Positions 9,102 to 59,110 of a stretch of DNA of 64,000 bases are shown in pieces. A program made the translations under genes and the position numbers. The notes beneath the pieces were generated by a model. That model made no database searches and was not told the origin of the DNA. It saw nothing but the letters and a program-made list of their open reading frames with translations. Source of the stretch: Bacteroidales bacterium (GTDB lineage: Bacteria; Bacteroidota; Bacteroidia; Bacteroidales; ML635J-15); contig JAFGVU010000025.1 in the NCBI GenBank assembly GCA_016937855.1, forward strand, positions 464-64,463, read 5' to 3'. The number at the start of each line of letters is the position of its first letter. Positions within the stretch are counted from its first letter, which is position 1.

Positions 9102-9206
9102 TTTCCAAAAATTTGATTCTAAATATTACAATATATGTGCCGTTAAATATTTGTCAACAGCAACGACATTATTATAAACGGATTAGATATAAATAAGTTG
9201 TAATTA

Positions 9207-9989
9207 TTAATCGGAGAAAATTATTGAGAAGTCATCGGCATCTTGCCAAGCAGGAAAGTCTTTTCTGAATGTATTTTGCCATGAGAGGTCAAAATTATGA
9301 AAAATCACTTCTTCAGAATTTTGATTGCAAGCATTTACAACAACTCCTTTTGCATCGACAAAGCATGATCCACCTTCATAATTGATATTATTTCCGTCGG
9401 TTCCAATTCTGTTTGCTGCAATTACAAGAGCTTGATTTTCGATTGCTCGAGCTTTTAGCAGAGTCTTAAAAATTTCCTGACGACTTGCAGGCCAATTTGC
9501 AATATAAATAATTGCGTCATAATCATTCCTATTTCTACTCCACACCGGGAATCTAAGATCATAACAAACTTGCAACAAAAACCGAACGTCTTTGTAATTG
9601 CAAATAACACGTTCGTTTCCTTTTGTGAACATATCAGCCTCACCACCCATTTTAAACAAATGACGTTTATCGTACCTTACAATTTCTCCATCAGGTTTAA
9701 TAAATAAAAAGGAGTTAAAATAATTGTCATTTTCATTTAAAATAATACTTCCACAGATTGCAGCATTTTGTTCCTTCGCCAGATTTTTAATAGTCGATAT
9801 TGTATCCCCATCCAAATTCTCAGCCATACTAGCAACATCATTTGTAAATCCAGTGTTAAACATTTCAGGTAATACGTATATGTCTGCTCGTTCCGAGTTC
9901 TTTACAATTTCTATAATTCTCTGTATGTTTTCAGAGAGATTTTCCCAAACAATATCATACTGTATAACAGCTATTTTAAGCTTACTCAT
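9207..9989 (-). CDS. Carbon-nitrogen hydrolase family amidohydrolase (YafV/omega-amidase-like)
   Basis: Trimmed to MSKLKIAVIQ. E-K-C triad context: LPEMFNTGF, KRHLF and QVCYDLRFP. Confidence 0.8.
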   Translation of the reverse strand: MSKLKIAVIQYDIVWENLSENIQRIIEIVKNSERADIYVLPEMFNTGFTNDVASMAENLDGDTISTIKNLAKEQNAAICGSIILNENDNYFNSFLFIKPDGEIVRYDKRHLFKMGGEADMFTKGNERVICNYKDVRFLLQVCYDLRFPVWSRNRNDYDAIIYIANWPASRQEIFKTLLKARAIENQALVIAANRIGTDGNNINYEGGSCFVDAKGVVVNACNQNSEEVIFHNFDLSWQNTFRKDFPAWQDADDFSIIFSD

Positions 9990-10533
9990 AACCGGTTTCA
10001 AATTTATCTTTATGCAGTCCGACACATCCAACATAATGTTTTTTTAAACGCTCCATAATTTCTTCATCCGTACCACTCATATCGAGCACACCCAAAACAC
10101 CCATATTTCGTGTGCGACAATCTAAAAAACCCATAACAACAGGGACATTTGCTCCTTTAGAAATCCGTATTAGACCCTTTTTCCAGTTCTTTGTTTTTTT
10201 TCGTGTTCCCTCAGGGGTAATAACAAGATAAAAACGATCCTTTGCATTATAAAAAGAGTCGATTGCTTTTTCAGTTAAGCCTGTTCTTCTACCACGATCA
10301 ACAGGAATTCCACCCATTCTTTTTAAAATAGGTCCTACCGGCCAAAAAAATGCTTCCTTCTTTACTAAAACCATAGGTCTGTATCCTTGCGAAGCAAAAT
10401 ATATTTTACCTAGAAAAAAATCCCACATACTAGTATGAGGAGCCATTAATACAACAGCTTTCTTTATATCAGGAAAGTCGTTATACTTCCACCGAAAAAG
10501 TTTTAAATACAATTTTGCCAGTGCTTTACTCAT
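9982..10533 (-). CDS. Lysophospholipid (1-acyl-sn-glycerol-3-phosphate-type) acyltransferase family protein
   Basis: HxxxxD box HTSMWD and PEGTR motif. Overlaps the downstream gene by 8 nt. Confidence 0.75.
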   Translation of the reverse strand: MSKALAKLYLKLFRWKYNDFPDIKKAVVLMAPHTSMWDFFLGKIYFASQGYRPMVLVKKEAFFWPVGPILKRMGGIPVDRGRRTGLTEKAIDSFYNAKDRFYLVITPEGTRKKTKNWKKGLIRISKGANVPVVMGFLDCRTRNMGVLGVLDMSGTDEEIMERLKKHYVGCVGLHKDKFETGYE

Positions 10534-11135
10534 ATTTTGTTTTTAATTTCTATTTTGTGATTCTGTTTTAACGAATTTAGCAAATTATCATAAAAAGACA
10601 ATCTAATTTGGAATAAAATTTTGCAATTTTCTAAAAATACTTGCTCAATAATTTCTGCATCATAATCGCTAAGAGTTTTCATCACAAAACTCATTTCGTC
10701 ATAATTAAAAATAACACTTGCCTGCTGCATAACGAATTGTTCGATAATTTTGGCATTTTGCAAAGCCTCTTTTGCTGCTGTTTTGTATGCATTTATCAAG
10801 CCCGGAACGCCTAATTTTGTTCCGCCAAAATATCTTACAACTACAATTAAGACATTTGTAAGCTCGAACGAACGTATTTGCCCTAACACGGGCATACCGG
10901 AGCTATTTGAGGGTTCTCCATCGTCGCTTGCTCTGTAAGTCGATTTATCGGCACCAATTACAAAAGCATAAACATGATGGCGTGCGTCATAATATTTTTT
11001 CTTTAGCTCCTGATGAATTTCCTTAACTTGCTCTTCCGACACAACAGGAAATGCAAAGGCATGAAACTTGCTGCCTTTTTCGGCGTAAAACCCGGAAGAT
11101 TCCCCCTCTATTGTATTAAATACATCGTTTTCCAT
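10530..11135 (-). CDS. IMPACT/YigZ (UPF0029) family protein
   Basis: YRASDDGEPSNSSGMPVL and RYFGGTKLGVPGLINAY are hallmark motifs of YigZ. Confidence 0.8.
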   Translation of the reverse strand: MENDVFNTIEGESSGFYAEKGSKFHAFAFPVVSEEQVKEIHQELKKKYYDARHHVYAFVIGADKSTYRASDDGEPSNSSGMPVLGQIRSFELTNVLIVVVRYFGGTKLGVPGLINAYKTAAKEALQNAKIIEQFVMQQASVIFNYDEMSFVMKTLSDYDAEIIEQVFLENCKILFQIRLSFYDNLLNSLKQNHKIEIKNKI

Positions 11136-12007
11136 TACAAATCGGCAATTGTAAGCAAAATTATTGTTATAACTGATAAAAACACTCCTAAAATGTTTAC
11201 TCTGGATAACTTTTCCTTGAAAAACAAAGTGCCTATTAATACAGTTACAAGAACAATCCCAACATCAACGACTCCATAGGTAACCGAATTTGCAAGTAAC
11301 CCACTGTTCATAGCAAGAAAAATAAAATAAACAGCTCCAAAATTCACTGCTCCTAAACTAAGACCAAAAAACCAGGTACGCCCTTTAGTAAATCCTTTTA
11401 ATGAAGAAGGTCTTAAAAACACTATAAGTGTTCCAAAAATAAGTGATACAGCAAAACATGTCGAGGTAAATATTGATGACATTTGAGAGTTAACATACTT
11501 CTCTTTTGAGAAAATCAATAATGAATTATTAACCCCCATCCCAATAAATAAAGCAAGTGGTAAAAGCATTGCAATAAAACCGGATTTTCTACCTTTGTTA
11601 GGTTTTACATATACACTCATCACAACAGCGAAAACAGCTAAAACAATAGCAACTATTTTTAGACTATTAATATTTTCATTATAAGCAATGATAGCAAATA
11701 ACATAGGTATTACAACGGACATTTTACTAGCGACAGTTGTAATTGATATCCCAGCCTTTTGCGATGATACTCCAACAACAAAAAACAATACAATAAAAAA
11801 GAATCCAATAACAAGTGCTGGATACAGCCACTGAGAATTGACAATTTCTTTAACCGGAAAACTACCATTAATAACAAAACCTAAAACTGCTGCAACAATA
11901 TAATTTATTACAATTACATTAATTAATGGTATCTTATATTGATCAACAAATTTGAAGATTACATATATTGCAGTTGCAGAGAGTACACTTAGAATTAGCC
12001 AGAGCAT
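11135..12007 (-). CDS. EamA/DMT-superfamily membrane transporter
   Basis: 290 aa with about 10 hydrophobic helices in two EamA-like halves. Confidence 0.7.
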   Translation of the reverse strand: MLWLILSVLSATAIYVIFKFVDQYKIPLINVIVINYIVAAVLGFVINGSFPVKEIVNSQWLYPALVIGFFFIVLFFVVGVSSQKAGISITTVASKMSVVIPMLFAIIAYNENINSLKIVAIVLAVFAVVMSVYVKPNKGRKSGFIAMLLPLALFIGMGVNNSLLIFSKEKYVNSQMSSIFTSTCFAVSLIFGTLIVFLRPSSLKGFTKGRTWFFGLSLGAVNFGAVYFIFLAMNSGLLANSVTYGVVDVGIVLVTVLIGTLFFKEKLSRVNILGVFLSVITIILLTIADL

Positions 12008-48719: not shown

Positions 48720-50600
48720 TTATGCCTTTTTCACGATTTTCTGATTATAGACTTGTGTACTATTTACTATTCTTAGATTATATATTCCATCTGACAAATG
48801 CTGCAAATCTAGATTTAAAGAGTTTATTCCCTTATCCAATTCAATATTTTTTAAATACACCACACGTCCTAATTCATCAAAAATCTGAACTTCAACAACT
48901 TTAATGGACACATCAGCATCAAAACTTACGGCTAAGCTATTACTAAACGGATTTGGAAAAGCAGTAATAGCAAGTTTTGAGTTTTCTCGCTCAACTGCCA
49001 CGATATTAGAATAAGTGTACAAGCCATCAAAATCTACTTGCTTAAGTCGATAATATGTGATTCCGCTCAAAACATTTTCGTTAATATACTTATAATTTGT
49101 GGGTTGGCTAGTAGTTCCTTGACCATCAATCTTTGCAATCTCATAATAATTCTTCAGATTTTCAGATTTTTCAACAACAAAGTAATCATTGTTTACTTCC
49201 GAAGCAGTTTCCCAGATTAAAACATCGTTTTCATTTTCGGTATAAACCTCAAACAATGTTAACTCAACCGGCAATACGTCTTCATTGCTGTTTGGACCTG
49301 TACCGACAGCATAAGTTCCGCCTGAAAACCCGGAAATATCAGCTAACTCAACGTAATTAATTCCATTTGCGGTTGTTAAATCATCACCAATTACAGTTAA
49401 TGAATATGCATCAGTAATTAATTCCGCCGTTGTCATACTAGACAAATTAAGCACATCACCATCATTTGACTTAAACCAACGAGCTTCGCGGATGTAGTTA
49501 TGGTCATAAGAATTTGTATTTATCCCACTTGAATTAGTTCCATTTAGGAAATCATCTGTTATATCGTCCAATAGAGCCTTTTCTGCCACAGGATAATAAA
49601 AACGAATGCGAACCGGATTTGTAAGTCTGCCTGTAACATCATTATAATCTGCACCTATTGCATCGACACTCCAGCTGCGACGTAGAGTATGAGTAGAATA
49701 TTCCGAATTGCTTGCTGTACTCAAATAATCGTCATCGGAGGCTGCAACACTAATTTCTACTGTTGCATCAAAATCGTTACTGTTTTTATATATTGAAAAG
49801 ATAAAATCGTGAGGATTTGCTGCAGTAGAATAATGAGTCCAACCGTCAACTTCGCAAAATGCAGTTGCTTCGGCAGTAGTACCATCTGACACATAGGTAA
49901 AATTATTGTCTAAAACAGTAACAATCCGAGGACCGAGTATTCCGGCGCAAGTTGCATTAGCTAAATCCGAAAAATCTGTATATGTCATGCCCTGAGTCAG
50001 ATTAGAGATTAAAACAGGATCGTTTGTACTTAATGCATAAGCTTCATAGGTTCCTGCACTGCTATAATCAGCAAGACCAAAACTACCGTCGGAATTAAAA
50101 TCTGTAATTGTACCTGTTGCTTGATCAACAAGAATATAACGAAGTTCGTATCCTGCGCTAGTTGTATAATCCTGAACAGCAATTTCTATTGGATTGCCCA
50201 AACAAATGTCGTCGGGAGAACAAACACTTATTGCCCTGTCAAAATATGCTCCACTCATTTCAAAACAATTTCCATTATCCAAATTATAAGTATTCAGATT
50301 TGTCCACGATTGCCCAACTGCAAGTTCGCTAGGCTGAGTACCTTCATAATTGACGGCATAAATAAAATATGATCCAACATCCACAACACCAAAATTACCA
50401 TCAGCATTTATCGATAAGATATTGCCTTGCGTACCGGAATTATCTTCGACCAAAATATATTGCTGTGTATATCCCATGTCGCTGGTATATCCGGCAGATT
50501 CAACGGCCACCGTTCCAAAAAAATCGCACTGACTGTATAACCCATTAGCAAAAGCTATAAGTACCAAAATCAGAATAATATGTAAATTAATTTTTTTCAT
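48720..50600 (-). CDS. T9SS-secreted protein with an internally duplicated N-terminal domain and a type-A CTD
   Basis: Signal peptide. Repeats ...YILVEDNSGTQGNILSINADGNFG... / ...YILVDQATGTITDFNSDGSFG.... C-terminus FPNPFSNSL...YNQKIVKKA. Confidence 0.75.
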   Translation of the reverse strand: MKKINLHIILILVLIAFANGLYSQCDFFGTVAVESAGYTSDMGYTQQYILVEDNSGTQGNILSINADGNFGVVDVGSYFIYAVNYEGTQPSELAVGQSWTNLNTYNLDNGNCFEMSGAYFDRAISVCSPDDICLGNPIEIAVQDYTTSAGYELRYILVDQATGTITDFNSDGSFGLADYSSAGTYEAYALSTNDPVLISNLTQGMTYTDFSDLANATCAGILGPRIVTVLDNNFTYVSDGTTAEATAFCEVDGWTHYSTAANPHDFIFSIYKNSNDFDATVEISVAASDDDYLSTASNSEYSTHTLRRSWSVDAIGADYNDVTGRLTNPVRIRFYYPVAEKALLDDITDDFLNGTNSSGINTNSYDHNYIREARWFKSNDGDVLNLSSMTTAELITDAYSLTVIGDDLTTANGINYVELADISGFSGGTYAVGTGPNSNEDVLPVELTLFEVYTENENDVLIWETASEVNNDYFVVEKSENLKNYYEIAKIDGQGTTSQPTNYKYINENVLSGITYYRLKQVDFDGLYTYSNIVAVERENSKLAITAFPNPFSNSLAVSFDADVSIKVVEVQIFDELGRVVYLKNIELDKGINSLNLDLQHLSDGIYNLRIVNSTQVYNQKIVKKA

Positions 50601-50618
50601 AATTTCAGATTTTGAATA

Positions 50619-52265
50619 TTAATACTGCCATGTTCCGGGATTTGCAATGCAGACATCGGCACAGCTTAAAGAAATCTCGAACTGCCCCTCGGCAGCACCA
50701 TCTCCGTCAACATAAATATAATAGTCGGTACCATTTGCTGCTGTAAATGTGTAAGTTGAAGTGGTTCCTGTTCCGCTGTCATCATCTCCACCAACACAAA
50801 CCAGAGAGCCACAAGTACCTGAAAAAATGTTGATTTGCGTATCAAAGTTAGTACCTGCATTATCGGTTGAAATAGTCACCTCCTGGCCTGTTCCTGTAAA
50901 TTGATACCAAATTCCTTTTTCTGCTGTTCCTCCTCCACTACAAGCAGTTGGAGCATCAGTATCTGTTGCTAAAATATTGCTAGCAATGTCACTATCTCCG
51001 CATGTTAAGACCAATGCATCGGCACATTCATCATTATCAGGAGTAATTACAACACCCGACACAGGCTCAAAATAATAATCACATAAATCACCAGCCCAAC
51101 CGTCTATTCTGATGTAATAAGTGTCTCCAATTGTAAGTCCTGTAAAATTCCAGGTTCCGGTTATATTTTCTCCGGTTGGATTTACGCAACTTCCGGGCAA
51201 TTCAGTTAAACTACCACAAACCCCACTAAATACTACTAATTGTATTCCAGAGCTTATTGGCTCACAATCTCCAACAGTAAAACTCATTTCAACATCTTCG
51301 TCCCCTGCAATAAAACGCATCCATGAGTCATTTTCAATTGTACCGCAACCCGCTGGACTTCCAGCACTAGCAGTATATGCACAATTAGTACTTCCTGTAA
51401 AAGGCTGGGATAAATCAATTAGAGGAGCATCAGCACATTCGTCTGTTGGTAAAGAGAGAGATTCATTACAAATATCACATTCTTCAAAAGTCTCAGAGAA
51501 ACCTCTGCAAGGATCGGCAACATCCTCAACAACAACAACAGACTGTCCCGACAAACCGCTAATTGTATAAGTTCCCAAACCAACATTTGAGTGATATGTT
51601 GTTGCCCCAATGCTAATATCAACACCTGTACTCCCATCTAAATCAGAAACAATAACCTCGACATCATAAGTAGAAAAATCTCCAGAGCAAGTTCTGCTCA
51701 TTGATCCTGTAGGTCCATCAGGACTTTGGACAATGCTTATATCGTCAATAATAACATAAAAATCACCGGCTACCCACTCTGCTTCAATTCTCACATAAAC
51801 ATCATCACCGCAATCGGGAGTGAAAGTATTAAAAGTATATGTATTACAAACTGCAGAGGACAAACTATTTAAGGTATTCAAAGTGTTCCATGTAGAGCCA
51901 TCGGTTGACCAATAACCGGTAAATGTACAATCGCCGGCATTAATAGCGCCATAAGGGCTATTAAAATCGATAGCTTTTCCATCAAAACTAAATGTTACAG
52001 CTGTACCATTCGACTGACCAATAATGGAGCTGGTTAAATATTCGTATATATCACTACTATATAAATTATCACGCATTGATGCTGTATTACAAGCATGAGT
52101 TGTAGTAAATGATGCTTCATTTAATGTCCATGTAACATCACTTTGCGTACATGGTGAGCTAGTGCATCCGGTAAAACTTGTTGAATAATTAAACTGTGCC
52201 TTAATTACTTGTGATGACCAACTTATAAGCACAAAAACTAATATAATTTTAACTATTGCTTTCAT
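50619..52265 (-). CDS. Cysteine-rich secreted protein with two pre-peptidase-C-terminal-like (PPC) modules; no T9SS CTD seen
   Basis: Signal peptide. Two DECADA...-initiated modules ending GDTYYIRIDGWAG and GTDYYIYVDGDGA. Confidence 0.65.
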   Translation of the reverse strand: MKAIVKIILVFVLISWSSQVIKAQFNYSTSFTGCTSSPCTQSDVTWTLNEASFTTTHACNTASMRDNLYSSDIYEYLTSSIIGQSNGTAVTFSFDGKAIDFNSPYGAINAGDCTFTGYWSTDGSTWNTLNTLNSLSSAVCNTYTFNTFTPDCGDDVYVRIEAEWVAGDFYVIIDDISIVQSPDGPTGSMSRTCSGDFSTYDVEVIVSDLDGSTGVDISIGATTYHSNVGLGTYTISGLSGQSVVVVEDVADPCRGFSETFEECDICNESLSLPTDECADAPLIDLSQPFTGSTNCAYTASAGSPAGCGTIENDSWMRFIAGDEDVEMSFTVGDCEPISSGIQLVVFSGVCGSLTELPGSCVNPTGENITGTWNFTGLTIGDTYYIRIDGWAGDLCDYYFEPVSGVVITPDNDECADALVLTCGDSDIASNILATDTDAPTACSGGGTAEKGIWYQFTGTGQEVTISTDNAGTNFDTQINIFSGTCGSLVCVGGDDDSGTGTTSTYTFTAANGTDYYIYVDGDGAAEGQFEISLSCADVCIANPGTWQY

Positions 52266-52919: not shown

Positions 52920-53261
52920 CTATTTTCCAGGTCTTTCAAGCTTTCCAGATAGTTTTTTTTCTGCATCTGCACGATTGTAAATTACTTCGACTGCCGTTTG
53001 GACATGTAACGCATAATGTATTTTATTCTGTACTTTCTTAAAAAACTCAACAGACACATCAGATTTTGGGTCGTAATCAATACTTGTTGCGTAAATATCA
53101 AGTACCTGACGATAAAAGACTTTCTCCGAAGCCCTGATATCGCGGATTCGTTGCAGCAATTCTTTCCAATAACCGCCACCGCCCAGGTTTTTTAGTCTTT
53201 CATCGTCCATTGCAAAAACTTTTCGGATATACTCATTTAGTCGTTTGGTTGCCCAAATCTG
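52920..53261 (-). pseudogene. Truncated RhuM-family (virulence/Fic-associated) gene remnant
   Basis: The reading frame QIWATKRLNEYIRKVFAMDDERLKNLGGGGYWKELLQRIRDIRASEKVFYRQVLDIYATSIDYD...VQNKIHYA matches the central conserved RhuM block. TAA-TGA stops lie immediately upstream (53262-53267). The roughly 90-aa N-terminus and the C-terminal half are missing. Confidence 0.7.
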
Positions 53262-53333: not shown

Positions 53334-54467
53334 TTATAATTTCCAAAATCCTGATTTATCGCTACCAATTCTCTCGATGATTCGCATTTTTTTAAGTTCC
53401 TGAATGTGCCTCTTTATGGTTGTAGTAGAACATCCTATTTTATCTGCAAGCTCGCTATAATTTGCCTTTGGATTTTTCTTTAACCATTGCAAGATACTAA
53501 TTTTTACAGGGTCATTTACAGGGTCATTTACAGGGTCATTTACAGGGTCATTTACAGGGTCATTTACAGGGTCGTTTACAGGGTCGTTTACAAGGTCATT
53601 TACAAGGTCATTTACAAGGTCATTTACAGGTTCAACAAACCGAACATGCATTTCTCTATTTCTCAAAGCATGGTTTTCGATGTGCAACAAGTTTTCGAAG
53701 AATCGCATTAAAAACACATTAGTAGTGTGAATATTCTTCGTATAATTCTTGTAATTAGCTCTTACCAAAGCATTTCTGAAATACATTGAATGCTCTGCAA
53801 ATAAATTATTGTTTACTTCAAAGCCAAATGTACGCAAATATTTTATTAAAAAAACTGCAGTTGTTCGGGTATTGCCTTCTCCAAAAATGTGAATTTGCCA
53901 AAGAGAAGAAATGAAATTTGCTATGTGCTGTAAAACTTCTTGCTGACTTAATCCTTTATAGCTAAACTTTTTTTCTTGTTCAAAATCATATTCCAAAGTA
54001 GCTTTTAAGCTATCAGCACTTCCATATAGAACAGTTTCTCCATCCAATACCCACTCTTGTTTGGTAATGTTGTAATCGCGAATTTTACCCGCAAACTTGT
54101 ATATTCCCAAAAATAACCTACGATGAATAGCAATGTATTCTGCCGGCGAAAACGTAAATGATTGTTCGCTCAGAATTTCTGCAATTCGCATAGAAACTTT
54201 ATCTGCTTCTTCAGTTCTGTCCTCACTAATTTGAGTCGGTTGCTGTTTATAATATGTTTCAATGCGCTCTTTAACTTCAGCAATACTAATATCGCCCTCT
54301 ATATTTTGTCTAGCAGTTGCTATGAGATAGTTAGAAGGTTTTAGACCATCAACCTCTTGTAAGCCAATAGCTATTTTCCAAAGCTTTGCCTTTTCTGATT
54401 TTCCAGGTTCTCCCTGCCGCAAATATTCTTCAAAATTATCCATTAGCCATTTTATATCATTTTTCAA
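53334..54467 (-). CDS. Fic/Fido-domain protein with an N-terminal VbhA-like segment, an internal (VNDL)3(VNDP)7 repeat and a C-terminal winged-HTH
   Basis: Fic loop HIFGEGNTRTTAVF. N-terminal LQEVDGLKPS...GDISIAEVKERIETYY. C-terminal YSELADKIGCSTTTIKRHIQELKK. Confidence 0.85.
   Translation of the reverse strand: MKNDIKWLMDNFEEYLRQGEPGKSEKAKLWKIAIGLQEVDGLKPSNYLIATARQNIEGDISIAEVKERIETYYKQQPTQISEDRTEEADKVSMRIAEILSEQSFTFSPAEYIAIHRRLFLGIYKFAGKIRDYNITKQEWVLDGETVLYGSADSLKATLEYDFEQEKKFSYKGLSQQEVLQHIANFISSLWQIHIFGEGNTRTTAVFLIKYLRTFGFEVNNNLFAEHSMYFRNALVRANYKNYTKNIHTTNVFLMRFFENLLHIENHALRNREMHVRFVEPVNDLVNDLVNDLVNDPVNDPVNDPVNDPVNDPVNDPVNDPVKISILQWLKKNPKANYSELADKIGCSTTTIKRHIQELKKMRIIERIGSDKSGFWKL
53505..53630 (-). 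repeat. In-frame 12-nt tandem repeat, 10 full copies plus a partial one, inside the Fic gene
   Basis: Plus-strand units: tacagggtcatt x5, tacagggtcgtt x2, tacaaggtcatt x3, then tacagg. Confidence 0.95.
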
Positions 54468-54519
54468 AATTAACCAATATTTTTAAACATCAACTAAAAT
54501 CAATCTTAAAATATCGTGC

Positions 54520-54550
54520 AAAAAAAAAGGACAAACCCAAAGGCCTGCCC
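54520..54550 (-). terminator. Orientation-specific intrinsic terminator closing the channel-nuclease unit
   Basis: Minus-strand RNA: GGGCAGGCC-UUUG-GGUUUGUCC (a 9-bp stem including 3 G-U pairs) followed by U9. The plus-strand complement would carry A-C mismatches. Confidence 0.6.
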
Positions 54551-54680
54551 GTTTTATTAAAATATTGCGATTTAGCTTACGCTTTTCTTTGTAGCTGTTT
54601 ATCAACTTTGAGAGGATATTGGTCTTTACTACAAATTCGTTCACACTGATTTTGAAACTATTCAATTATGATTTAGTTCT

Positions 54681-54704
54681 AATTGTGGCGAATTCGCCAC
54701 AATT
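54681..54704. promoter_or_regulatory. Perfect 24-bp palindrome aattgtggcgAATTcgccacaatt
   Basis: Self-complementary over all 24 nt, centred on GAATTC. Lies in the 3' UTR of the 616-aa gene, upstream of the terminator. Confidence 0.6.
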
Positions 54705-54777
54705 AAAATCCGGATAATTCACTTGTGCCCAAATGCAAATGTAATCCAAGTTATATTTGCATGACTTTAATGACACC

Positions 54778-56628
54778 CTACTTCAATATTGCTTTAATTA
54801 TACGATCTTCCTTAATTAAAACATCTTTCATAAGAAGTTGATACGGGAATTGCTTGTGTTTTGACTCTTTAAATGCCTCCAAAATACTAACTAGAGATGA
54901 TGCAGTAATAAGAGATAAATTCAACTCAAAATCTAAATCACATTCATTTATAAAATCATCACTAAAACTTGGTGCAACTAACAAAGATTTCAAAACTGTA
55001 TAACCATTTTGATTAACTAAGTCTATATAAGATTTCATTTGTCTTGTAACTGCACTAAATTTATTATATCCTGCATCTTTAACAGTTTTACACTCTATGA
55101 TTATAACTCCATCATCGTCAAGATTTAACAGGATATCAATCTTGTTCTTTGCTGTACTTAATTGTTTCTTAAGTTTTTCATCAACATTAAATCCAAGTTT
55201 TAAAAATATTGATTTTGTTATATCCTCAAATTTAATCCCTAACTCGCTTTCCTTAATGAGAATACCGTTGTTCTTTAATTCATTCAAGTTTCGATATCCA
55301 ATATTTTCATAATTCTCAATAAACAGATTTTCTGCATCTTTGTATGCATCTAAAATATTAATTGCAAAATTCCCTCTCTTTTTTATTTCGTATTTATCAA
55401 CAAAAACATTCATTTCCTCTTTTGATAGTTGATCTAAGATATCCCGAGGTTTTATATTAAAGTCTAATAAATAATCACCTTTAAGCACAAACTCTTCTTG
55501 AAGTTCAAACTCATGCCGAACCTTTTGATTTAGCTCCTTAAAAGTATCATTTAAATCTTTTAAAAGTTTATCATAACCCTCATTGGAAATTCCAACTTTC
55601 TCGTCCTTCTCTATGTTATTAAAATAAAGAATCAAATTGTCGATTTTTTCATCAAGAGTTATACCTTTTAATGTACCAGTGTTATCAAGTCCTTTTTCCC
55701 AAATTTCATTAATAAACTTCTTCTTATCGGTTAAATTGGTCCCTTCCTTATGTAATTCATCTGTCAATAAGTTATAAAAAGAAATCCCTTCATTAATAAT
55801 AGCCTTAATCTTTTCTTCTAAAGGAAGTTTTATATCAACATTATGCTTTCTGCAAACATAGTTTATTTGTGGTTCTCTTAGTAGATTAAGAAATCTACGA
55901 TAAAACTTGTCTGCAATACGTTTGTTTCTCAACCCCCTTAAAACTCTTACCATTTCATCAGCAACATATATCTCTCGGTTTTTCTTCGAGTAGAAAATCA
56001 CTCCAATGGTCTTTAATTCATTTATTAAATCCTCTAACTTTAATTTTTTAGGAGGTATAACAAGATAGTTAATAGTTTTAATTTCTTCCTGAGACAACTG
56101 AAGCTCATTTGCTAATGTGAGCAAAATTGATAATTCTTCCGCAGTAATTTTCGGATCTCTATTATTTTCTAAATCATTGAAATAAGCAGTAAAAACACAT
56201 TTCTTATAAATAATATAATCTCTTTTTCTTAAACTGTCTATTTCTGTGTTATTATCTAACAATAGTGTTTCCAATTGTGCAGTTTTTTGAGATATTTTCT
56301 TTATCTCTTTCTCATACAATTTATAAAACCAATCATCCTTCATAATACAATTACCATCACGAATAATAATATCAACAAGAATATCAATTTGAGAGGTGGT
56401 TTCAACAAACTCTTCTTTAATAATTTCTGTGTACTCCTTCCTAACTAAATCAAAAACAAGACTTATTATTATATTGTCAACCTCTTTAAGATTATTAATA
56501 TTTTCTGAGAGAATCTTATTTATTTCTTTCTTGTTTTCTGGCTCATTGCTTATTATGTTATCAATAATCTTCAAGAACGAATTTTTCTCAAGTGAATTTA
56601 CTCTACTCAGGATTTTTTCAAGTTTCAT
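54778..56628 (-). CDS. 616-aa protein: helical N-terminal region plus a C-terminal Mrr-like PD-(D/E)xK restriction-endonuclease-fold domain
   Basis: C-terminal FEDITKSIFLKLGF...KIDILLNLDDDGVIIIECKT...SLLVAPSFSDDF (D498 at 55135-55137; E512-C-K514 at 55087-55095). The ATG lies 2 nt after the stop of the upstream channel gene. Confidence 0.7.
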   Translation of the reverse strand: MKLEKILSRVNSLEKNSFLKIIDNIISNEPENKKEINKILSENINNLKEVDNIIISLVFDLVRKEYTEIIKEEFVETTSQIDILVDIIIRDGNCIMKDDWFYKLYEKEIKKISQKTAQLETLLLDNNTEIDSLRKRDYIIYKKCVFTAYFNDLENNRDPKITAEELSILLTLANELQLSQEEIKTINYLVIPPKKLKLEDLINELKTIGVIFYSKKNREIYVADEMVRVLRGLRNKRIADKFYRRFLNLLREPQINYVCRKHNVDIKLPLEEKIKAIINEGISFYNLLTDELHKEGTNLTDKKKFINEIWEKGLDNTGTLKGITLDEKIDNLILYFNNIEKDEKVGISNEGYDKLLKDLNDTFKELNQKVRHEFELQEEFVLKGDYLLDFNIKPRDILDQLSKEEMNVFVDKYEIKKRGNFAINILDAYKDAENLFIENYENIGYRNLNELKNNGILIKESELGIKFEDITKSIFLKLGFNVDEKLKKQLSTAKNKIDILLNLDDDGVIIIECKTVKDAGYNKFSAVTRQMKSYIDLVNQNGYTVLKSLLVAPSFSDDFINECDLDFELNLSLITASSLVSILEAFKESKHKQFPYQLLMKDVLIKEDRIIKAILK

Positions 56629-56630
56629 TT

Positions 56631-57410
56631 CTATTTGGTATTTAGTTTAGTAATTAAAATTTCTAATTTATTATTAATGTCATCCACTTTCTTCTCTAAT
56701 TCATCATTATTATCACTTAACATCGCCTCTACAAATATCGAATTAACTAAAGAAAGGCCAAATATCCCTCCAGTAATGACAATAAAAATAAAATACAAAT
56801 ATATAAAAAATGTATAAGTTTGCGATAATCCTTCAGAAAGTATCTCTGGAATCTCAAACCATCCCTCAATTGTAAATATTTTAAATACAGAATAAAGTGA
56901 AATTAATGGATTCCCAAAACATGCAGGATACAAATCTTTAAATAAATAATGAGAAAAAACCCCAACAATAAAAATATAAACAGCAAACCCGATCATAATT
57001 AAAATCGTCGTCTTCAATGCCCTAGTTATCCCTAAAATAAGTTCACTAAGTCCAGGTACAAATTTTATAAACCTCAAAAACTTAAAAACTCTAAGTATTC
57101 TCAAGACTAACAAAACACTTAAATCGATAAAATCCAAACTAAAAGCGTATGTAACCAACGATGGTACAGCCAAAAATACTAATACAAAATCAAAAACATT
57201 CCATTTTACACGAAAATAACTTTTAAACCCAAATTCTTTTACTTTAAATAATACTTCCAGCAAAAACAAAACTGTAATTATACTGTCAAACATTAAGATT
57301 CGAGATTTAATAACAGTTGAATATTCAAACCCACTAATAAAAATTAAAATTGCATTAATAATTATTAATACTAGAATAAATCTATCATTTAAAAAAAGTC
57401 TTCTAATCAT
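56631..57410 (-). CDS. Bacterial voltage-gated cation channel, NaChBac/BacNav family (6TM, single domain)
   Basis: Collinear with NaChBac: WNVFDFVLV (S3); S4 LRILRVFKFLRFIK (57060-57110) with 5 R/K at i+3 spacing; pore FGNPLISLYSVFKIFTIEGW (filter 56859-56873); C-terminal coiled coil. Confidence 0.85.
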   Translation of the reverse strand: MIRRLFLNDRFILVLIIINAILIFISGFEYSTVIKSRILMFDSIITVLFLLEVLFKVKEFGFKSYFRVKWNVFDFVLVFLAVPSLVTYAFSLDFIDLSVLLVLRILRVFKFLRFIKFVPGLSELILGITRALKTTILIMIGFAVYIFIVGVFSHYLFKDLYPACFGNPLISLYSVFKIFTIEGWFEIPEILSEGLSQTYTFFIYLYFIFIVITGGIFGLSLVNSIFVEAMLSDNNDELEKKVDDINNKLEILITKLNTK

Positions 57411-57459
57411 CGTTTAAATATAATTAAATTAGTCACTAAATACAACTCGAACCATATCC

Positions 57460-57467
57460 CAAATGTA
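57460..57467 (-). promoter_or_regulatory. Candidate -7 promoter box TACATTTG upstream of the channel gene
   Basis: The minus strand reads agTACATTTGgg and matches TAnnTTTG, about 50 nt upstream of ATG 57410. Confidence 0.3.
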
Positions 57468-57479
57468 CTATGTCCCCTC

Positions 57480-57671
57480 CTAATCAGTTGAGTCGATTTT
57501 TCTTTTTAATCTAAAATTTTCATAAACTAATGTAATTATTCCAATCATGGTTCCAACTATCATTAGAACAATGCCATCGTGAAATTTTAGAATTTTCAAC
57601 AGGCCACCAGATAGAATTAAAATCGTTGATACTAATAGAATTATGTTTACAGTTCTTCTTATCCTATTCAT
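57480..57671 (-). CDS. 63-aa two-TM small membrane protein
   Basis: MNRIRRTVNIILLVSTILILSGGLLKILKFHDGIVLMIVGTMIGIITLVYENFRLKRKIDSTD. The track ORF (57480..57785) runs through the tnaA terminator and into tnaA, so it was trimmed to the first ATG after the terminator. Confidence 0.5.
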   Translation of the reverse strand: MNRIRRTVNIILLVSTILILSGGLLKILKFHDGIVLMIVGTMIGIITLVYENFRLKRKIDSTD

Positions 57672-57687
57672 TTCAATATCTTTAACT

Positions 57688-57720
57688 AAAAAAAGGCGGA
57701 CATTTCTAAATTTGTCCGCC
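57688..57720 (-). terminator. Rho-independent terminator of tnaA
   Basis: Minus strand: ggcggaca-aatttagaaa-tgtccgcc followed by T7. Confidence 0.8.
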
Positions 57721-57733
57721 ATTATCATTTTTA

Positions 57734-59110
57734 TTACGCCTTTTTCAACTCCACAGTAAAGTGTCTCATTATTGGAGCTTCCCAAGTGATTTCTAGGCCT
57801 GCTTTTATTTGGTCTCTGCGATCGTAAACATTTTTAAGGGCAGCAGCGATATAATCCATGTGATTGTTGGTGTAAACACGACGAGGAATTGCAAGTCTTA
57901 AAAGTTCGAGTTTAGGATAACGGTTTTCGCGCGTTACAGGGTCGCGGTCGGCAAGTATTGCCCCAATCTCCACGCCACGAATTCCACCTTCGAGATACAA
58001 TTCAACACCTAAAGTTTGAGCTCTAAATTGTTCCTTTGGCACATTTGGCAATATTTTATTAGCGTCAACAAAAATTGCATGTCCGCCAATTGGGTATTGA
58101 ATGGGCACACCATATTCGCGTAGTTTTTCGCCAAGATACTCAACCTGTTTTATTCGTGTTTCGAGATAATCGAACTCTGTCGCCTCATCAAGTCCAACAG
58201 CTAGTGCTGCCATATCGCGACCTGCCATACCTCCATAAGTTACAAATCCCTCGAACATAATGTTAAAAGTACATGCTTTGCGATAGGTTTCCTCGTCTTT
58301 AAAACCGATAAATCCACCCATATTTACCAAACCGTCTTTCTTGGAGCTCATTGTTGCATAATCTGCATATTTATACATCTCAGCAACAATCTCTTTTATT
58401 GTCCAATCCTTGTAAGCTTCTTCGCGCAATTTAATAAAATAGGCATTTTCGGCAAAACGAGCAGAGTCGTACATTACCGGAATGCCATATTTTTTACTCA
58501 AAGCATACACATCTTTCATGTTTTGAATAGAAACCGGCTGTCCTCCTGATGAATTACATGTAACGGTAACTATACAGCAAGATATTTTTTCCTTGGGATA
58601 TCCTTTATAAACTTTTTCGAGCTTTTCAAGATCAAGATTCCCCTTAAAAGGATGATTAAGTGTAGTATCAAAAGCCTCATCAATAGTACAATCTACTGCG
58701 GTAGCCTTACGAAATTCTATGTGCCCTTTAGTGGTATCAAAATGTGAGTTTCCGGGCACAATATCTCCCTCTTTAACCATAACAGAGAATAATACATTTT
58801 CTGCCGCTCTACCCTGATGTGTTGGAAGAAAATAGTCAAAGCCCATAATTCTTTTTACTGTATCTTTAAGCTCATGAAAGCTACGTGCTCCGGCATAAGA
58901 TTCATCTCCCGTCATAATTGCTGCCCACTGACGGTCACTCATTGCACCTGTTCCGCTGTCGGTTAAAAGGTCAATAAATACCTTATCACTTTTTAACTTA
59001 AATAAATTGTACTTTGCCTCTTTCATCCAGGCTTCGCGTTGTTCTCTTGTGCTCCTTTTGAGCGGTTCTATCATTTTGATTTTATACGATTCTGAAAATG
59101 GTAATTCCAT
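57734..59110 (-). CDS. tnaA: Tryptophanase (beta-eliminating lyase family; tyrosine phenol-lyase not excluded)
   Basis: FIDLLTDSGTGAMS, PTHQGRAAE, DSARFAENAYFIK and the PLP-Lys region SSKKDGLVNMGG. Collinear with E. coli TnaA. Confidence 0.85.
   Translation of the reverse strand: MELPFSESYKIKMIEPLKRSTREQREAWMKEAKYNLFKLKSDKVFIDLLTDSGTGAMSDRQWAAIMTGDESYAGARSFHELKDTVKRIMGFDYFLPTHQGRAAENVLFSVMVKEGDIVPGNSHFDTTKGHIEFRKATAVDCTIDEAFDTTLNHPFKGNLDLEKLEKVYKGYPKEKISCCIVTVTCNSSGGQPVSIQNMKDVYALSKKYGIPVMYDSARFAENAYFIKLREEAYKDWTIKEIVAEMYKYADYATMSSKKDGLVNMGGFIGFKDEETYRKACTFNIMFEGFVTYGGMAGRDMAALAVGLDEATEFDYLETRIKQVEYLGEKLREYGVPIQYPIGGHAIFVDANKILPNVPKEQFRAQTLGVELYLEGGIRGVEIGAILADRDPVTRENRYPKLELLRLAIPRRVYTNNHMDYIAAALKNVYDRRDQIKAGLEITWEAPIMRHFTVELKKA

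Follow-up and report, generated by a model that had tools for sequence, protein, structure and literature searches.

In a 64,000-nucleotide stretch of contig JAFGVU010000025.1 (assembly GCA_016937855.1, from a Bacteroidales bacterium; the whole stretch is referred to below as the window), a gene for a voltage-gated cation channel lies directly upstream of a gene for a 616-aa soluble protein with a C-terminal PD-(D/E)xK nuclease domain. An initial annotation, made from the sequence alone, had placed three minus-strand genes here, the third being a small open reading frame (ORF) with two predicted transmembrane helices upstream of the channel, and had proposed that the three form a defence module linked to membrane potential. 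The ORF list contains all three at the positions claimed for them, and direct reading of the sequence confirmed that the nuclease ATG follows the TAG of the channel by 2 nt. In the analysis described here, the channel and the nuclease emerged as a genuinely conserved, translationally coupled unit, with the look of a conflict or defence module not described before. The features on which this account is based are the following.

56631..57410, minus strand: voltage-gated cation channel gene, 259 aa, with a single six-transmembrane Ion_trans domain
57060..57110, minus strand: S4 voltage-sensor helix of the channel (residues 101-117), with R104, R107, K110, R113 and K116 at every third position
56853..56873, minus strand: selectivity filter T180-I-E-G-W-F-E186 of the channel; subfamily consensus FT[VI]EGW[FY]EIPE
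56626..56633, minus strand: gene junction read from the sequence, with the channel TAG at 56631-56633, then AA, then the nuclease ATG at 56626-56628
54778..56628, minus strand: gene of the 616-aa soluble protein with a C-terminal PD-(D/E)xK domain, assigned by AlphaFold2 (AF2) modelling, Foldseek and homologue searches
54829..55266, minus strand: PD-(D/E)xK core, residues ~455-600, with E468, D498, E512 and K514
55135-55137, 55093-55095 and 55087-55089, minus strand: catalytic codons of D498, E512 and K514, respectively

The channel protein matches the Pfam family Ion_trans (PF00520) over residues 9-228, which span S1-S6, at E=2.2e-24 and 86.4 bits against a cutoff of 25, and the sequences of solved structure that match it best are those of Cav3 T-type and Nav channels, by their repeats, and of NavMs, NaChBac and NavAb, which have a single domain. 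The motifs by which it had been recognized at the outset are all present, namely WNVFDFVLV in S3, five R/K residues at every third position of the S4 helix LRILRVFKFLRFIKF, and FTIEGW in the pore. Homologue searches produced 1082 matches, with a subfamily at 54-60% identity, and conservation was read from an alignment of 24 homologues picked from these matches, mostly 54-60% identical. In that alignment the S4 charges R104, R107, K110, R113 and K116 are invariant, and the same is true of the residues that form the gating-charge transfer centre, F49 and E52 (S2) and D74 (S3). Since both sets of residues are invariant, the voltage sensor looks intact. Also strongly conserved among the homologues is a cytoplasmic segment that follows S6, SLVNSIFVDAMVSDNNDELEKKI.

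The selectivity filter has the consensus T[VI]EGW[FY]E across the channel subfamily, the copy in the window being TIEGWFE. In the report on CavMr, the first native prokaryotic Ca2+ channel to be described, its filter is given as TLEGWVD, and a Gly at filter position 4 is shown to determine Ca2+ selectivity and position 7 to be polar or acidic, canonical BacNavs lacking both features (PMC7041947). As the filter of the window channel combines Gly at position 4 with an acidic residue at position 7, like CavMr and unlike the TLESW of NaChBac, we infer that the channel is CavMr-like and probably Ca2+-selective rather than a Na+ channel of the NaChBac type. Of the earlier assignment to NaChBac-type Na+ channels, the voltage-gated Ion_trans channel stands, and Na+ selectivity is the less likely of the two selectivities. 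An EF-hand-like Ca2+ site was also considered in the NDxxNNRDxKIT loop (residues 151-162) and was rejected by eye, the canonical spacing not being matched.

The 616-aa protein carries FEDITKSIFLKLGF, IDILL, IIIECK and LLVAPSFS, as had been reported for it. Database searches gave 2802 homologues, all labelled hypothetical and none with a Pfam domain; the top matches are 63-73% identical and keep a fixed length of 616-617 aa, and the family comprises ~25 full-length clusters at the 50% identity level and extends to ~30% identity. No variation in D498, E512 and K514 was seen in the family down to 27% identity, and E468, on the first alpha helix of the core, is invariant among close members. The invariant charges and charge-transfer centre of the channel and this invariant catalytic triad make both proteins of the pair look functional. 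With respect to the proposed Mrr-like PD-(D/E)xK nuclease, the invariant core upholds the nuclease part of the name; the match to Mrr_cat (PF04471), over residues 465-518, reached only 15.6 bits (E=0.018) against a cutoff of 21 bits, and because of this score the protein was filed under the PD-(D/E)xK superfamily and not under Pfam Mrr_cat.

The AF2 model of the 616-aa protein (pLDDT 75) consists of a helical N-terminal region of ~450 residues, with a winged-helix-like unit at ~160-222 (helices 163-175, 180-190 and 198-208, hairpin 212-221), followed by a C-terminal core of alpha-beta-beta-beta-alpha-beta topology modelled at pLDDT 88-92. A separate model of the N-terminal 452 residues reached pLDDT 54 and was discarded. 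In Foldseek searches against the Protein Data Bank (PDB), the top five matches of the full-length model were Nt.BspD6I and FokI, with E values from 1e-3 to 5e-2 over 540-680 aligned columns and TM-scores of only ~0.2; the lower matches were all PD-(D/E)xK proteins, also with low TM-scores (arenavirus endonuclease, McrC, EcoO109I, Cap4 and Cdn1), and searches against viral structures returned only weak matches to Mrr or PD-(D/E)xK proteins. The nuclease fold is backed by the conserved D/E/K residues; the structure matches, although dominated by this superfamily, reach an E value of 1e-3 at best, and their TM-scores are low. Sequence searches of the PDB with a single sequence and with a profile gave nothing useful, a lone bacteriocin-immunity match at E=0.12 being spurious; NCBIfam and PADLOC searches gave no meaningful match, and a profile search with distant family members recovered only the same unannotated family. 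The protein matches phrog_34709, of unknown function, over its full length. We place it firmly in the PD-(D/E)xK superfamily, and tentatively read its organization as the FokI plan, in which a region that binds DNA precedes the cleavage domain.

Among 185,579 genomes, one per species, relatives of the 616-aa protein occur in at least 344, mostly of Bacteroidota, and also in metagenome-assembled genomes (MAGs) labelled Ignavibacteriaceae, Melioribacteraceae, Calditrichia, Cloacimonetes, Latescibacter, Aminicenantes and Desulfaltia. Three Pseudoalteromonas chromids (Gammaproteobacteria) encode full-length homologues of 35% identity, annotated as hypothetical. In two of these strains (NZ_CP032091 and NZ_CP091443) the homologue directly follows a gene for an HNH endonuclease, and the genes downstream vary by strain, with a metallophosphoesterase, an EutP-like protein and a DEAD helicase versus a histone deacetylase.

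The linkage between the two genes was assessed from both sides. On the nuclease side, we took the best 80 nuclease loci from the one-genome-per-species scan, and in 21 of them the channel gene lies immediately upstream of the nuclease gene, the junction ranging from a 32-nt overlap to a 5-nt gap. The other 59 have no channel within ~10 kb (8 of them with too little upstream DNA), so the nuclease family does not require the channel and is solitary in some 70% of the sampled genomes; the solo nuclease genes have their own upstream region of 100-400 nt and unrelated neighbours. The channel-linked nucleases group in a single clade of a neighbour-joining tree, with a few scattered losses, so that the downstream-of-channel arrangement arose once inside this family (called below the 617-aa family) and was kept afterwards. 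A DNA methyltransferase was not found among the recurrent neighbours of the 21 paired and 59 solo loci, nor in the unit of the window. As no methyltransferase recurs at these loci, a classical type II restriction-modification system was rejected, and the nuclease must be controlled in another way.

A less biased test of linkage started from the channel. A metagenome scan with the channel profile yielded 80 loci, 34 of which had 50% identity or more to the window channel and enough flanking DNA to be assessed, and a PD-(D/E)xK gene adjoins 22 of these 34 channels: a member of the 617-aa family downstream in 14 cases and upstream in 4 (gaps of 3-14 nt), and a ~350-aa HSDR_N protein downstream in 4. 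No nuclease partner was seen for the remaining 12; a ResIII/DEAD helicase occupies the partner position in one of them, and in two the channel is directly followed by the same ORF family, which by its sequence looks like an insertion sequence (IS) transposase. More distant channels (40-48% identity) added four HSDR_N pairs and one pair with the nuclease upstream, the gaps in reversed-order pairs being 3-24 nt. A further channel, found separately, is paired with an HSDR_N gene (L090), and one channel of the subfamily stands alone (L091). When pooled with the nuclease-ascertained loci, 45 of 55 channels adjoin a PD-(D/E)xK gene.

The ~350-aa partner matches Pfam HSDR_N, another PD-(D/E)xK domain, with its N-terminus at 1e-15 to 1e-17, above the cutoff; its C-terminal half is uncharacterised, and phrog_4225 ('endonuclease') matches it over the full length at 2.5e-136. 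It is found at L095:5779-6831, L099, L104, L128, L144, L150, L171, L173 and L090:6785-7826, and the L090 copy is divided between two ORFs (96 and 258 aa). The nucleases placed upstream of the channel are most similar to those of the solo clade and not to the channel-linked clade, and HSDR_N partners are spread over at least three separate channel clades; on these grounds the channel has become linked to PD-(D/E)xK genes repeatedly and independently, in both gene orders and with two unrelated families. Both nuclease families are rare per genome, so chance adjacency is not credible, and the pairing has clearly been selected.

The two partners have also diverged and moved together. Pairwise divergences of channel and nuclease are correlated across 20 paired loci (r=0.84). 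Between Maribacter aquimaris (Flavobacteriia) and a Sunxiuqinia MAG (Bacteroidia), the channels are 92% and the nucleases 95% identical in amino acid sequence, and at the nucleotide level a block of 87% identity (9205-11854) starts 21 nt ahead of the channel ATG and ends with the nuclease stop, the rest of the 21.8 kb showing no such identity. Comparisons with Draconibacterium orientale gave identical limits of the shared DNA. As the identity covers exactly the two genes and the flanks are unrelated, the 2.65-kb two-gene cassette is the unit of horizontal transfer. The Sunxiuqinia cassette (L014:1-21851) lies amid at least four near-identical IS-like repeats of ~2 kb with two ORFs each, an arrangement that resembles a composite transposon.

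We propose, with a probability of roughly 0.4, that the cassette is a conflict module directed against phages or plasmids, with a logic analogous to that of Zorya, in which the channel would sense depolarisation and a swappable nuclease would act as effector. A defence or abortive-infection function, as had been suggested for the locus, seems plausible. The assignment of roles follows from the channel being constant and the nuclease being swapped, by analogy with modular defence systems, in which the exchangeable part is usually the effector. The constant membrane part would be a homotetrameric voltage-gated channel, probably Ca2+-selective and closed at the resting potential, which would open on depolarisation, for instance on phage genome injection or pore formation; phage genome entry depolarises cells transiently. 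The nuclease in the cytoplasm would then be licensed to cut DNA, either by the cations that flow in or by a conformational change relayed through the conserved cytoplasmic tail behind S6. This nuclease would consist of a helical, winged-helix-containing DNA-binding region and a catalytically intact PD-(D/E)xK domain, and would be an exchangeable effector that also exists solo as a restriction-like gene. Record titles suggest that many cassette hosts are marine or sediment bacteria, and in such settings the inward gradients of Ca2+ and Na+ would be steep. A more specific version, in which a voltage-gated Ca2+-selective channel serves innate immunity as a membrane-potential sensor and the depolarisation of phage entry produces an electrical or Ca2+ signal that licenses interchangeable restriction-like nucleases, seems somewhat unlikely.

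Several observations weigh against the proposal of a depolarisation-sensing conflict module. Besides the 59 of 80 solo nucleases and the 12 of 34 close channels that have no nuclease partner, one and the same channel signal would have to act on two unrelated nuclease families, and PD-(D/E)xK enzymes normally use Mg2+, not Ca2+. The FokI-like organization of the effector comes from a Foldseek match with an E value of 1e-3 and a TM-score of ~0.2. The physical or functional coupling of channel and nuclease is itself something that we infer, as are the direction of signalling and the defence role. The 616-aa nuclease is unusually conserved for a defence gene, keeping its fixed length and 56-73% identity between classes and in other phyla, and viral carriage of its family amounts to one IMG/VR contig and no GenBank phage. 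The neighbours of the paired loci (21 loci, 114 proteins) are mostly housekeeping genes, and strong PADLOC matches make up only ~6-9% of the nearest neighbours, many of them being unvalidated PDC candidates. As for the single viral contig (IMGVR_UViG_2839188362_000002), it carries the nuclease at 57% identity and no channel, and the neighbours include a Peptidase_S49/ClpP-like protein and a DUF5662 protein.

The neighbourhoods nevertheless contain scattered genes of conflict and mobility. Next to the paired loci these include IS91 transposase (Y2_Tnp, 3), integrase (phage-integrase Pfam, 2), ThsB_TIR (2), AriA (1e-72), a reverse transcriptase (1e-51) and several PADLOC PDC candidates, and L090 adjoins genes for RVT_1+HTH and DUF4276+AAA_15 proteins. 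The neighbours of the solo loci (145 proteins) are alike, with single matches to PDC families, AbiEi and RhuM. Strong PADLOC matches number ~8-10 among the 114 paired and ~8-10 among the 145 solo neighbours, as raw counts. In the window itself the pair, which is low in GC, lies next to a gene for a Fic protein matching PDC-S72 and to a RhuM fragment. With mostly housekeeping neighbours, the defence-island signal is modest; the context fits an accessory mobile conflict gene. In PADLOC-DB v2, which covers Zorya, RexAB, Kiwa and PDC candidates, the 616-aa protein was unmatched and the channel gave only a CorA-like match at E=0.053. Literature searches, the article on DefensePredictor included, turned up no account of a nuclease-linked Ion_trans-type channel or of one that takes part in phage defence, and the earlier statement that no named defence system uses such a channel agrees with both the PADLOC models and the literature found.

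Three other explanations have to be weighed. The flow of information could be reversed, as in RexAB: the nuclease-fold protein would sense foreign DNA or replication intermediates and open the channel, which would be an abortive-infection effector acting through depolarisation or Ca2+ overload and leading to dormancy or death. The comparative data support a DNA-acting cytoplasmic protein with an ion channel equally well in this direction, the conserved segment behind S6 could serve as a docking site, and membrane-depolarising effectors are common in defence, Chp1 and RexAB being examples. We nevertheless consider the reversal unlikely, as it is the nuclease that is swapped and the channel that is constant, when the swapped part is usually the effector; moreover, an invariant catalytic D/E/K set would be needless in a pure sensor, invariant S4 charges argue for voltage gating and not for a ligand alone, and the PADLOC search gave no homology to RexA or RexB. 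Quite improbable, in our judgement, is the absence of any coupling, with the 616-aa protein as an autonomous solitary restriction-like or selfish nuclease (type IV-like or homing-like) and the channel as an ordinary physiological neighbour or cargo. Such independence would agree with the solo state of most nuclease loci, their own upstream regions and unrelated neighbours, and with the fact that some channels of the subfamily, such as L091, stand alone, and the correlation of 0.84 is no proof of interaction, because linked genes share history. It is contradicted by the frequency of the pairing, since chance adjacency cannot place 22 of 34 channels beside one of two rare nuclease families; nor does it explain two gene orders with different nuclease ancestry, gaps of 3-24 nt and overlaps kept across deep divergence, or a transfer that spans precisely both genes.

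The module could also be physiological and unrelated to defence, tying voltage-gated Ca2+ entry to some operation on DNA (stress-induced processing, repair, competence or nucleoid remodelling, for example), or employing the nuclease-fold protein as a cytoplasmic auxiliary subunit of the channel. Much of what was counted above against a conflict module speaks for this one: mostly housekeeping neighbours, a nuclease conserved very highly over its full, fixed length in different classes and phyla, in contrast to defence genes, which evolve fast, near absence of the nuclease from phage collections, and no match of either protein to PADLOC models. Against these stand the patchy distribution (344 species or more among 185,579), the IS-associated movement of the cassette between classes, the low GC of the pair, the swapping of partners among restriction-type domains, HSDR_N and ResIII, and the defence and mobile-element genes that adjoin some loci, which together are typical of accessory conflict genes and not of core physiology. 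A physiological module appears improbable to us, and the reading that we prefer is a conflict module with the channel as sensor of depolarisation and the nuclease as effector.

Further elements surround the pair in the window, as follows.

54520..54550, minus strand: intrinsic-terminator-like hairpin and T-run closing the unit, 228 nt past the nuclease stop
57460..57467, minus strand: TAnnTTTG, matching the -7 promoter consensus of Bacteroidota, in the interval that separates the small ORF from the channel
57480..57722, minus strand: small ORF with two transmembrane helices, 63 aa from the ATG at 57671 and 80 aa from the ATG at 57722

The closing terminator has its hairpin and T-run at 54550-54529, with a 9-pair stem that includes 5 GC pairs, followed by TTTTTTTTTG. 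A scan of 54300-57900 found two terminator-like sites on the minus strand, and as the second (56771-56752) lies inside the channel gene, the site at 54520-54550 is the only one downstream of the unit, in agreement with the single terminator first described. Between the nuclease stop codon and the terminator there is a perfect 24-bp palindrome, AATTGTGGCGAATTCGCCACAATT (54681-54704), which might serve as an operator, fold into a hairpin or act as a recombination site. The GC content is 25.8% for the channel gene and 27.6% for the nuclease gene, compared with 39.7% for the adjacent gene tnaA and 34.3% for the whole window, and so the pair is indeed more AT-rich than tnaA, as had been judged by eye. 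Profile matches likewise corroborated the neighbouring Fic gene and the decayed RhuM gene. The former (53334-54467) encodes a Fic/DOC protein with a C-terminal winged helix-turn-helix (HTH) domain and matches the PADLOC candidate PDC-S72 at 6.5e-145; in this protein the Fic and HTH domains are separated by ten tandem VND[LP] tetrapeptides (aa 281-320; 53508-53627). The RhuM-family ORF (52920-53210) spans only positions 62-150 of the 252 of the profile and is thus a decayed fragment. Downstream of the island, at 48720-52265 of the window, two large secreted proteins of 626 and 548 aa are encoded; the C-terminus of the 626-aa protein looks by eye like a type IX secretion system sorting domain, and both are ordinary Bacteroidota surface proteins unrelated to the cassette.

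The inclusion of the small ORF in the module, as originally suggested, was not supported. No homologue was found in the 80 genome loci, and the ORF recurs only in three contigs (L086-L088), in which channel identity is 88-98%. In the small ORF, the counts of nonsynonymous/synonymous codon differences are 12/11 and 4/5 (ratio ~1, against 0.2-0.6 for the neighbouring genes), compared with 18/76 and 23/112 in the nuclease gene and 9/85 and 6/75 in tnaA, indicating weak constraint. The start of the ORF is ambiguous: on related contigs gene callers place it at the ATG at 57722, inside the terminator hairpin of tnaA, which lies at 57720-57688 and consists of GGCGGAC, 12 nt, GTCCGCC and T7; in the extended ORF it is encoded in the added residues MADKFRNVR. 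Either this N-terminal extension is untranslated or the tnaA hairpin has two roles. As a part of the module the small ORF was thus rejected, having no homologue beyond near relatives, weak constraint and a long form that overlaps the tnaA terminator, and it is best regarded as a lineage-specific neighbour outside the conserved cassette.

The TAnnTTTG box between the small ORF and the channel is a weak candidate for a promoter of the channel-nuclease pair's own. A conserved -7 box of this type upstream of all cassettes was considered and found unsupported, occurring in 9 of 37 cassettes versus 4 of 37 control windows. A different, conserved element, CGTTAnCnnCAATATT, lies at a constant distance, 44-51 nt upstream of the channel ATG, in six loci of one sub-clade (L011, L014, L022, L035, L126 and L129), that is, in 6 of 97 loci versus 0.6 expected, the window having no clear copy. 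It is a candidate promoter or operator that may travel with the cassette.

Structural work on the eukaryotic Nav and Cav channels relies mainly on bacterial voltage-gated Na+/Ca2+ channels as models, yet the physiological roles of the latter are largely unknown. The nuclease-linked subfamily offers a function that can be tested, which would be the coupling of membrane voltage or Ca2+ entry to DNA cleavage, and the cassette is a compact two-gene system in which to study signalling from a channel to a cytoplasmic enzyme. If the cassette is a defence system, voltage gating would be a new sensing principle, an electrical counterpart of Zorya and Kiwa. Should the channel indeed act as an immune sensor, this would be the first physiological role for a prokaryotic channel of the Cav/BacNav type and, for prokaryotic immunity, the first excitable second-messenger step based on voltage and Ca2+, borne by a two-gene cassette that crosses classes. 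Even if its role is not defensive, a large unannotated nuclease family has been defined, with more than 2800 database proteins and, tentatively, a FokI-like organization.

We compared the cassette with the known systems that its parts resemble. With CavMr, the ancestor-like BacNav (AnclNav), NaChBac, NavAb and NavMs the channel shares a single six-transmembrane Ion_trans domain of ~260 aa, and with CavMr and BacNavs an S4 helix with five R/K residues at every third position and a helical C-terminal tail. To our knowledge, BacNavs have no operon partner. The likeness to CavMr is one of filter sequence, a shared T-x-E-G-W-x-acidic pattern (TIEGWFE here, TLEGWVD in CavMr) that includes Gly at position 4 (PMC7041947). 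The passages of that report on CavMr and NavPp mention no operon partner (Shimomura et al. 2020, PMC7041947), whereas the channel subfamily described here is systematically nuclease-linked and moves as a cassette.

On the nuclease side, the type IIS restriction and nicking enzymes FokI and Nt.BspD6I are of similar size (~580-620 aa) and have an N-terminal helical or winged-helix recognition region followed by a C-terminal PD-(D/E)xK domain, an arrangement that the 616-aa protein may share, although sequence similarity is not detectable and the TM-score is ~0.2. Systems of the FokI type have a methyltransferase, which does not recur at the 616-aa loci, and the whole 616-aa protein, its putative recognition region included, is highly conserved and not diversified. 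Type IV, modification-dependent enzymes of the Mrr kind share the solitary state without a methyltransferase, the C-terminal D...ExK core and, in the model, an upstream winged-helix-like unit, but Mrr has a single winged-helix domain and the N-terminal region of the 616-aa protein, with ~450 aa, is far larger.

Among defence systems that join a membrane part to a cytoplasmic one, RexAB of phage lambda combines a cytoplasmic DNA-associated protein with a membrane ion channel and gives membrane potential a central place, as would the cassette. RexB has four transmembrane helices and no voltage-sensor domain, and RexA is not a catalytically intact PD-(D/E)xK enzyme; homology of either cassette protein to RexAB was not found in the PADLOC search. 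Zorya has a constant ion-conducting ZorAB and soluble components (ZorC/D or other nuclease effectors) that vary by subtype, and here the channel is constant and the nuclease varies; interpreted in this way, the two would follow the same logic of a membrane sensor and a nuclease effector. ZorAB is a MotAB-like 5:2 stator unrelated to the tetrameric voltage-gated channel of the cassette, neither cassette protein has a PADLOC match to Zorya, and the cassette has two genes and is free of helicase and ATPase. The cassette thus pairs an ion-conducting membrane part with a nuclease as Zorya and RexAB do, but from unrelated parts, the voltage-gated channel being the surprising element.

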